A stretch of 64,000 nt of DNA, from the NCBI RefSeq assembly GCF_056746865.1, contig NZ_CM163382.1. One strand, written 5' to 3'. Positions 23,501-26,500 of this stretch are shown here, one piece after another. Made by a program: the position numbers. How positions within the stretch are numbered: the first letter of the stretch is position 1; the number at the start of each line of letters is the position of its first letter.

Positions 23501-26500
23501 GGGTTATCAGGCCGATAACCAACCACAGGCTGCGGTTGTCAGCGGTGACCATCATGTTATCGCCGATCATCCCCCAGACCATCACCGGGATACCCACCGC
23601 CAGTGCGACAATCGCCTGCCAGCGGAAGCGCTTCATCGTAGCGACGGCGGTTTCTTGCTGGCGCTCGCGGCGTTTAGCGTCATCTTCAATCGCTTCCGCG
23701 CCGTAGCCCGCTTTTTCCACCGCCTGCACTAAATCTTGTGGGGAGGCACTGCCCATCACCAGCGCAGTACGCTCCGCCAGGTTTACCCGTGCCTGAGTGA
23801 CGCCCGGTACGCTTTGCAGCGCATTTTGTACGCGGGTGACACAGCTGGCGCAGCTCATGCCGCTCAGCAGCAACTGCTGGCTGTCATCGTCATCGGCGGT
23901 CGCTGCCGGAAGCGCCTCAGAAACCGCTGTCAGTGCTTCCGACGGGATTGATGACTCCGCCAGCGGTTTAGCCTTTGGGTGGCTTACAGATGCGTCATAA
24001 CCCGCTTGTTTGATGGTTTCGATCAGCTGTTCTGCACTGGCAGTCCCGGTAACGTGCGCTTCAGTGACAGACACATCCGCCTGCTCAACATCCGGGCGCT
24101 GTTCGAGACTTTCTTTCACGCGTTTAACGCAGTGACCGCAGGACAGGCCGTCCAGGGTCAGGTCGATAGTTTGTGACATAAAACACTCCTTTTAAGACAG
24201 TTTTGACTGGCTGTGATAAAGGTTAAACCTTCCAGCAAGGGGAAGGTCAAGAAATTAATAAACCAGGCGGGTAAAAGTCCGTAAAGATTAAAAAATCGGC
24301 TCGATTTGCATCAGGATTAGACATTTATCTCTTTGTTTTCCTGTAGTTAAGTTGCGGGTGCTAAGTTAAATCAGGATGCCTGAAAATCGGCACCGGGGTG
24401 AGGAATTACCTCCCGCATCTATAAAAAGGAGTTAACAAAAGATGTTAGATGCAAACAAATTACAGCAGGCAGTGGATCAGGCTTACACCCAATTTCACTC
24501 ACTTAACGGCGGACAAAATGCCGACTACATTCCCTTTCTGGCGAATGTACCTGGTCAACTGGCAGCAGTGGCTATTGTGACCTGCGATGGCAACATCTAT
24601 CGCGCGGGTGATAGTGATTACCGCTTTGCGCTGGAATCCATCTCGAAAGTCTGTACGTTAGCCCTTGCGTTAGAAGATGTCGGCCCGCAGGCGGTACAGG
24701 ACAAAGTTGGCGCTGACCCGACCGGATTGCCCTTTAACTCAGTTATCGCCTTAGAGTTGCATGGCGGCAAACCGCTGTCGCCACTGGTAAATGCTGGCGC
24801 TATTGCCACCACCAGCCTGATTAACGCTGAAAATGCCGAACAACGCTGGCAGCGAATTTTACATATCCAACAACAACTGGCTGGTGAGCAGGTAGCGCTC
24901 TCTGACGAAGTAAACCAGTCGGAACAAACAACCAACTTCCATAACCGGGCCATTGCCTGGCTGCTGTACTCCGCCGGATATCTCTATTGTGATGCAATGG
25001 AAGCCTGTGACGTGTACACCCGTCAGTGCTCCACGCTCATCAATACTGTTGAACTGGCAACGCTTGGCGCGACGCTGGCGGCGGGTGGTGTGAATCCGCT
25101 GACGCATAAACGCGTTCTTCAGGCCGACAACGTGCCGTACATTCTGGCTGAAATGATGATGGAAGGGCTGTATGGTCGCTCCGGTGACTGGGCGTATCGC
25201 GTTGGTTTACCGGGCAAAAGCGGTGTAGGTGGCGGTATTCTGGCGGTCGTCCCTGGCGTGATGGGAATTGCCGCGTTCTCACCACCGCTGGACGAAGAAG
25301 GCAACAGTGTTCGCGGTCAAAAAATGGTGGCATCGGTCGCTAAGCAACTCGGCTATAACGTGTTTAAGGGCTGATCATGATGAACACGGAAGGTAATAAC
25401 GGTAACAAACCCCTCGGTCTATGGAATGTCGTTTCCATCGGCATTGGGGCAATGGTGGGGGCGGGGATCTTCGCGCTGCTGGGGCAGGCTGCGTTGCTAA
25501 TGGAAGCCTCGACCTGGGTCGCCTTTGCTTTTGGCGGTATTGTGGCGATGTTTTCCGGTTATGCCTATGCGCGTCTGGGGGCGAGCTATCCCAGCAATGG
25601 CGGCATTATCGACTTCTTTCGTCGCGGATTAGGCAACGGTGTCTTTTCGCTGGCGCTCTCGTTACTGTACCTGTTGACGCTGGCGGTGAGCATCGCCATG
25701 GTCGCCCGTGCTTTTGGCGCTTATGCCGTGCAGTTTTTGCATGAAGGCAGCCAGGAGGAGCACCTTATTTTGCTCTACGCGTTGGGGATCATTGCGGTGA
25801 TGACGCTTTTCAACTCCTTAAGCAACCATGCGGTAGGGCGGCTGGAAGTGATCCTCGTCGGCATTAAAATGATGATCCTGTTATTGCTGATCATTGCAGG
25901 TGTCTGGTCGCTGCAACCGGCGCATATTTCCGTCTCTGCGCCCCCCAGCTCCGGTGCGTTCTTCTCCTGTATCGGGATAACCTTCCTTGCCTATGCGGGC
26001 TTTGGCATGATGGCGAACGCGGCGGATAAAGTGAAAGATCCGCAGGTCATTATGCCACGGGCGTTTCTGGTGGCGATTGGCGTTACCACGTTGCTTTATA
26101 TCTCGCTGGCGCTGGTTTTGCTTAGCGATGTATCGGCATTAGAGTTAGAAAAATATGCCGATACTGCCGTAGCGCAGGCAGCTTCTCCGCTGCTCGGGCA
26201 TGTGGGTTATGTGATCGTCGTCATCGGCGCTTTACTGGCGACGGCTTCAGCCATCAACGCGAACCTGTTCGCCGTGTTTAACATCATGGACAACATGGGC
26301 AGCGAACGCGAACTGCCGAAGCTAATGAATAAATCCCTGTGGCGGCAGAGTACCTGGGGCAACATCATTGTCGTGGTGTTGATTATGCTGATGACGGCGG
26401 CGCTGAATTTAGGCTCACTCGCCAGCGTTGCCAGCGCCACCTTTTTGATCTGCTATCTGGCGGTGTTTGTGGTGGCGATCCGCCTGCGTCATGATATTCA

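Follow-up and report, generated by a model that had tools for sequence, protein, structure and literature searches.

Introduction

Only three chromosomal recoding events of Escherichia coli have become textbook cases, those in copA, dnaX and prfB, and the same three genes are named as the well-characterised cases of this organism (PMC10861913). For copA, a 70-aa product has been reported (PMC5009743), and the copA pseudoknot has been employed as an efficient stimulator of bacterial −1 programmed ribosomal frameshifting (PRF) (PMC6182138). A later critical paper regards ribosome profiling as good support for the −1 frameshift, notes its independent confirmation, and describes that ribosome density falls after the −1 stop (PMC9548414). 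The frameshift was published by Meydan et al. (2017; Mol Cell 65:207) and by Drees et al. (2017; Mol Microbiol 106:635), and the latter paper pairs translational frameshifting with 'differential transcript formation' in its title. In the present study, we analysed a stretch of 64,000 nucleotides (nt) from contig NZ_CM163382.1 of the NCBI RefSeq assembly GCF_056746865.1, which is E. coli DNA and is called the window in the following, and in which an earlier note had marked a −1 frameshift site inside copA. We conclude that this site is the known −1 PRF cassette of enterobacterial copA in an intact state, a reading to which we assign a probability of about 0.94. The element is real, functional, already known and already annotated in K-12, and it is not new.

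Like copA, dnaX carries a chromosomal bacterial −1 PRF site with an N_NNA_AAG heptamer that has a Lys-AAG codon in the A site, and in both genes the −1 frame is stopped almost at once, which results in a truncated functional N-terminal product. The heptamers themselves are not the same, being A_AAA_AAG in dnaX and C_CCA_AAG in copA, and the stimulators differ as well. In dnaX, these are an upstream Shine-Dalgarno-like sequence and a downstream hairpin, whereas in copA a downstream pseudoknot takes this role, together with the nascent chain as described in the literature. The stimulation in copA is said to come from the slippery sequence, the mRNA pseudoknot and the CopA nascent chain.

With respect to the product, the closest described proteins are the CopZ/Atx1-type chaperones, such as CopZ from B. 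subtilis and E. hirae, which likewise are soluble HMA-fold proteins, have a length of about 70 aa and a CxxC site for Cu(I), and have CopA as partner (PMC6747150). CopZ is encoded by its own gene, whereas the copA chaperone is cut from the first metal-binding domain (MBD1) of the pump by recoding (PMC10187127), and the frameshift thereby explains how E. coli has a copper chaperone without a copZ gene. For the orthologous human Cu-ATPase ATP7B, a CCCAAAG-containing cassette was proposed in the same 2017 paper as the bacterial one, and this proposal has been refuted, as there is no drop in ribosome density and no synonymous-site conservation, and as the reporter signal was an artefact (PMC9548414).

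An intact frameshift cassette in copA

All elements of copA that are described below lie on the minus strand, as does the gene itself. The slippery heptamer C_CCA_AAG is found at 23973..23979, which corresponds to gene nt 201-207 (offset 2), and is split C|CCA|AAG over H67 (CAC), P68 (CCA) and K69 (AAG). This is the X_XXY_YYZ register that tandem tRNA slippage needs, with a shift from CCA to CCC in the P site and from AAG to AAA in the A site. The earlier note had claimed exactly this register at codons 68-69, followed in the −1 frame by GGC TAA, and both claims hold: the TAA is located at 23968..23970 and ends the product, CopA(Z), one codon after the slip. Heptamer and stop also fall inside the interval 23960..23990 that had been given for the site. 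We looked for the two features that were said to speak against such a site, a heptamer in the wrong register and a −1 frame lacking a nearby stop, and found neither.

The complete CopA(Z) reading covers 23968..24179, with codons 1-69 in frame 0 (24179..23973), a second reading of G23973, and then GGC TAA. Its translation has 70 aa (MSQ...SHPKG), of which residues 8-62 match profile positions 3-62 of the 62 positions of PF00403 (HMA; E=8.4e-14), in agreement with the claim that the product equals the first metal-binding domain. The CxxC Cu(I) site is formed by C14 and C17 (G-L-S-C14-G-H-C17) in the first loop, and 2roe and 2l3m are solved relatives from the group of stand-alone CopZ/Atx1-type chaperones. 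As judged from its primary structure, CopA(Z) is a CopZ/Atx1-like HMA-domain protein in which both the HMA domain and the CxxC motif are complete.

The cassette could be compared directly with that of K-12 MG1655, to which the earlier note had related it. In the alignment, no base differs between the window and K-12 over the stretch that starts at codon 39 and extends to at least 190 nt beyond the heptamer. This identity includes the slippery heptamer and its −1 stop as well as the spacer, both stems of the pseudoknot described below, and residues 39-69 of the nascent chain. The 5′ part of copA differs from K-12 by three bases, all upstream of codon 39. Two of these changes are synonymous, and the third gives V38 here versus I38 in K-12, the sole amino-acid difference in the 70-aa frame. 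A further difference is one 1-nt indel in the 5′ untranslated region. These differences, like the absence of ybaQ beside copA that is described below, spare the recoding signals. At exactly the same place, RefSeq lists for K-12 the two-piece coding sequence YP_009518752.1, "soluble Cu(+) chaperone", which spans 212 nt from the shared ATG, i.e., 207+6 nt with a one-base overlap, as computed here. The slipping itself, its stimulation by the pseudoknot and the nascent chain, and the copper handling are taken from published work on K-12, in which the sequence is the same, or inferred, and would apply here by analogy.

Conservation of the recoding signals

To follow the signals across species, we used one scan of species-representative genomes with CopA residues 1-320, which gave 80 loci. 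These orthologues are from other species of the Enterobacteriaceae and Erwiniaceae, with genera including Escherichia, Citrobacter, Klebsiella, Raoultella, Enterobacter, Kosakonia, Cedecea, Buttiauxella, Pantoea and Erwinia, and together with copA of the window they make up the 81 sequences of the alignment. As the retrieval peptides do not overlap the frameshift site, the retrieval is unbiased with respect to it. The CGHC motif is invariant in 80/80 orthologues. The in-frame heptamer is C_CCA_AAG in 77 orthologues and C_CCA_AAA, which is also slippery, in the remaining three, so that 81/81 sequences are slippery and 78/81 have C_CCA_AAG when the window is counted. The carriers of C_CCA_AAA are Superficieibacter electus, Pluralibacter gergoviae and Tenebrionibacter intestinalis; in these species, the post-slip codon encodes Asn or Ile and not Gly, and the position of the stop is unchanged.

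The −1 frame meets TAA or TGA exactly at the second codon after the slip in 81/81 sequences, and the products have 70-74 aa. In the zero frame, codon 70 varies between A, S, T and P and codon 71 between K, D, E and N, with N-C-T-[A/G]-A being kept in all cases. That this pattern is kept while the overlapping amino acids change points to selection on the −1 stop itself. Pro68 is encoded by CCA in 81/81 sequences, a codon that accounts for 7% of the Pro codons elsewhere in the same genes, and there is no indel in the spacer columns of the 81 sequences. Within E. coli, copA is present in 5422 of 5426 complete genomes, and a 100-nt stretch centred on the cassette reaches an identity of at least 99% in 5422/5422 genomes, as compared to 4017 genomes for a single 100-nt control segment of copA.

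This conservation bears on the question of whether the heptamer and the −1 stop could be a mere coincidence of His-Pro-Lys-Ala-Lys coding with no role in recoding. X_XXY_YYZ heptamers do arise by chance: copA contains two further ones, at gene nt 999 and 2211, and codon-shuffled versions of the gene have about 2.6 per gene. However, the site at 23979..23973 is the sole N_NNA_AAG heptamer in copA, the exact in-frame C_CCA_AAG occurs in only 2% of the shuffles, and only 2 of the 16 synonymous codings of His-Pro-Lys are slippery, yet such a coding is used in every sequence of the alignment, with the rare CCA and AAG codons and with a fixed −1 stop. The conservation, together with the frameshifting shown experimentally in the identical K-12 sequence, effectively refutes a coincidence.

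Synonymous variation defines the extent of the constrained region. The mean synonymous codon entropy in the alignment is 1.19 bit for codons 1-66, 0.13 bit for codons 67-92 and 1.08 bit for codons 93-320, which corresponds to an about nine-fold lower synonymous variation over codons 67-92 (Mann-Whitney p=2e-11). The lowest entropies of all 12-column segments in the 320 codons are found, tied, at 66-80 and 67-81, which start at the heptamer. The frozen codons include the rare CCA, GCT, TCG, ACA, CTT and GCA, with background shares of 0.07, 0.08, 0.08, 0.06, 0.09 and 0.13, respectively; Leu90, for example, is CTT in 81/81 sequences, whereas CTT represents 9% of the Leu codons elsewhere. Codon bias was considered as a cause of the low entropy and rejected, since several rare codons are among the frozen ones. 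The bacterial copA cassette hence strongly passes the synonymous-site test that ATP7B fails. Judged from the alignment, the heptamer, the −1 stop and both stems of the predicted pseudoknot are evidently under strong purifying selection.

The constraint reaches slightly past the heptamer and the stems. The codon of Ser66 (23982..23984), which lies just 5′ of the heptamer, is AGC in 75/75 of the sequences that have a Ser at this position, although six Ser codons exist, and the Ser-Ser codons TCA-TCA in loop 1 of the pseudoknot are nearly frozen. Possible causes are the sequence context in the E site or further upstream, an effect of the nascent chain, and tertiary contacts within the pseudoknot. 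As the constraint exceeds the minimal signals in this way, and as the arrangement is kept as far as Erwinia and Pantoea, C_CCA_AAA variants included, it is conceivable that the cassette is a tunable switch and not a device of fixed ratio, with a chaperone-to-pump ratio that responds to conditions such as copper loading of the nascent MBD1, temperature, or a binder of the pseudoknot. We regard such tuning as improbable, and the data presented here give no positive evidence for regulation.

A predicted pseudoknot behind the heptamer

The earlier note had suggested predicting a downstream stimulatory structure. By enumeration of stems 3′ of the heptamer and refinement with the alignment, we obtained one outstanding candidate, a predicted H-type pseudoknot that begins 6 nt past the heptamer and thus within the expected range of 5-9 nt. 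If the base directly behind the heptamer is taken as nt 1, the spacer GCUAAA occupies nt 1-6 (23967..23972) and leads to the 5′ arm of stem 1, CCGCUG-G-CGG (nt 7-16; 23957..23966). Loop 1 comprises the 13 nt from nt 17 to 29, and the 5′ arm of stem 2, GUCGGAAGC (nt 30-38; 23935..23943), lies within the loop of stem 1. After a junction of 1 nt (nt 39), so that it begins one nt past the 5′ arm of stem 2, the 3′ arm of stem 1 follows, CUG-A-CAGCGG (nt 40-49; 23924..23933). Loop 3 has 10 nt (nt 50-59), and the 3′ arm of stem 2, GCUUCCGGC (nt 60-68; 23905..23913), completes the fold.

All 73 distinct sequences share the same 6-bp core of stem 1, CCGCUG/CAGCGG. Over all species, stem 2 is paired in 99.5% of the alignment cells. 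The substitutions seen there are limited to GC becoming GU and to UG becoming CG or UA, and each of them keeps the pair. RNAalifold, which considers nested pairs only, independently recovers stem 1 together with three inner pairs, C-G, R-U and G-C, and one of its inner pairs of stem 1 has AU, GU and GC variants. Unpaired third positions vary freely, as exemplified by the junction codon 82, which is GCA, GCG or GCC. The inward extension of stem 1 found by RNAalifold is conserved, unlike an E. coli-specific AAA/UUU extension that would give a 9-bp stem 1. The latter pairs in only about 11-48% of the distinct sequences and was rejected as a part of the conserved structure.

No observation contradicts the main reading, and some limits of the evidence for the fold and of the reading of the conservation need to be considered here. 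Compensatory double changes are absent from the stem cores of the 73 distinct sequences, and, as the stem cores never vary, the pseudoknot is supported by conservation and geometry and not by covariation. Moreover, when the 93 nt behind the heptamer are folded as a single sequence, the nested minimum free energy structure is not unusually stable (z = −1.35). ViennaRNA cannot score pseudoknots, and this nested fold, which is dominated by stem 2 and non-conserved outer pairs, was set aside in favour of the enumeration of pseudoknots. Finally, the 81 sequences are phylogenetically related; their third-position identity to the window averages only 0.50 over codons 1-60.

Rfam was searched with E values up to 10 over 23500..24400 and with the gathering threshold over the whole window, and only sub-threshold chance matches were obtained at the cassette. 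We did not find a family for the copA frameshift element in Rfam 15, which is another difference from dnaX, for which a family exists.

Since invariant stems offer no covariation that would prove RNA pairing, the synonymous conservation could in principle result from some other overlapping element, such as an antisense open reading frame (ORF), a small RNA (sRNA), an internal promoter or a protein-binding DNA site, and mechanically called plus-strand ORFs at 23797..24000, 23736..23951 and 23979..24176 do overlap the region. However, the constrained tract measures only about 26 codons, with the heptamer as its exact start and the 3′ arm of stem 2 as its end. Its frozen blocks are complementary to each other as a pseudoknot, with free third positions where bases are unpaired and with pair-preserving changes in stem 2. 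Neither an Rfam family nor a promoter-like site was detected there by the Rfam search and a sigma-70 scan. Such an element is therefore, in our view, extremely unlikely to be the cause.

The position of the pseudoknot also helps to judge whether the short product might arise at the level of transcription, by stuttering of the RNA polymerase. It is generally known that the polymerase slips on homopolymer runs in some cases of bacterial recoding, for example in insertion sequence (IS) elements (reviewed in PMC5009743). In contrast to the runs of about nine or more A or T that are typical for this process, the site in copA has nothing longer than C3 and A3, and a conserved pseudoknot at a spacing of 6 nt is the signature of −1 PRF by the ribosome. 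The chance that transcriptional slippage accounts for the product is, in our estimate, close to nil.

From one mRNA to two products

A promoter for copA was found by sequence at 24220..24250, with TTGACC as −35 element, a spacer of 19 nt, and TAACCT as −10 element, and the dyad ACCTTCC-N7-GGAAGGT sits inside this spacer. We take the dyad to be the MerR-type CueR operator, in line with established knowledge (Outten et al. 2000). An over-long 19-nt spacer that holds a dyad is the layout of promoters activated by CueR as a MerR-type regulator, and the arrangement at 24250..24220 fits this layout. The sigma-70 scan, which uses a spacer rule of 16-18 nt, detected no promoter for copA, and it missed the one described here because its 19-nt spacer is outside this rule. 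The Shine-Dalgarno sequence AAGGAG (24186..24191) is located 6 nt 5′ of the ATG that is used by both CopA and CopA(Z), and promoter and ribosome-binding site are identical to those of K-12.

According to the model that is suggested by these elements and by the K-12 literature, CueR-activated transcription would give one copA mRNA with one ATG (24179), from which two products could be made. With P68 (CCA) and K69 (AAG) in the P and A sites, the pseudoknot 6 nt further on would be positioned at the mRNA entrance, where it may resist unwinding and impede translocation, and published work implicates the nascent CopA chain as an additional stimulator. A fraction of the ribosomes would then slip by one base in the 5′ direction, with new pairing on CCC and AAA, and would decode GGC before terminating at the TAA. 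The released 70-aa CopA(Z) would be a free MBD1 with C14-x-x-C17 and, by analogy, probably a cytosolic Cu(I) chaperone, while ribosomes that do not slip would produce the 834-aa pump.

A different origin of the MBD1 protein would be a separate short copA transcript as its main source, in which case the conserved RNA structure would serve 3′-end formation or stability. The wording 'differential transcript formation' in the title of Drees et al. (2017) points to a second route having been reported, and a conserved structured region just beyond the end of MBD1 would suit such a function. On the other hand, a short transcript needs neither an in-register heptamer nor a −1 stop, and both are kept in 81/81 sequences despite amino-acid changes. 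The terminator scan showed no T-run terminator hairpin 3′ of the site on the copA strand, and a truncated mRNA without a stop would lead to products tagged by transfer-messenger RNA (tmRNA), so that the frameshift stop would still be needed. We consider it very unlikely that a short transcript is the main source, and the two routes are probably complementary and not alternatives to each other. The −1 PRF cassette as the origin of CopA(Z) is thus compatible with a short transcript being formed as well.

Annotation of CopA(Z)

The 834-aa zero-frame product of copA (ORF 21675..24179), a Cu(I)-exporting P1B-type ATPase, contains two N-terminal HMA domains, an E1-E2 ATPase domain and a HAD hydrolase domain according to Pfam. 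The gene is 100% identical to copA of E. coli strain 118UI, for which the Prokaryotic Genome Annotation Pipeline (PGAP) annotates only the pump and omits CopA(Z). As pipelines of the PGAP type list only the pump, and as Rfam is without a model, the 70-aa protein is missing from almost all genome records. In our alignment of 81 sequences, which represents at least two families of the Enterobacterales, the conservation of the signals is tight enough to permit an automatic annotation of CopA(Z). In biological terms there is nothing new in the cassette, and the practical value of the analysis lies in annotation.

Genomic context

The gene order ybaK-ybaP-copA-glsA-ybaT is common to the window and K-12. 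The intergenic gap between ybaP and copA (21504..21674) has 171 nt, whereas its K-12 counterpart has about 795 nt and houses ybaQ (b0483). ybaQ is absent beside copA in the window, and strain 118UI is arranged alike. The match to K-12 is confined to the two ends of the gap, with about 110 differing nt between them. The space between ybaK and ybaP contains, at 20627..20710 on the plus strand, the sRNA sroB/ChiX (RF00368, 81.1 bits), which has the same place in K-12.

An intact copy of the dnaX tau/gamma −1 frameshift element (RF00382, 96.8 bits) was detected at 6886..6950 on the plus strand, inside the ORF 5622..7553, and two of the three classic chromosomal recoding sites of E. coli, dnaX and copA, thus lie within 17 kb in the window. 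Two copies of naRNA4 (RF02564), a family of nucleoid-associated RNAs, are found at 14873..14950 on the plus strand and at 56241..56318 on the minus strand. The region 3′ of ybaT (27007..52586, plus strand) begins with an ORF for a TolC-family outer-membrane protein (27007..28362), followed by a giant ORF of 6925 aa (28471..49248) and by the ORFs 49252..51414 and 51411..52586. This cluster resembles a type I secretion system whose substrate would be a giant repetitive adhesin.

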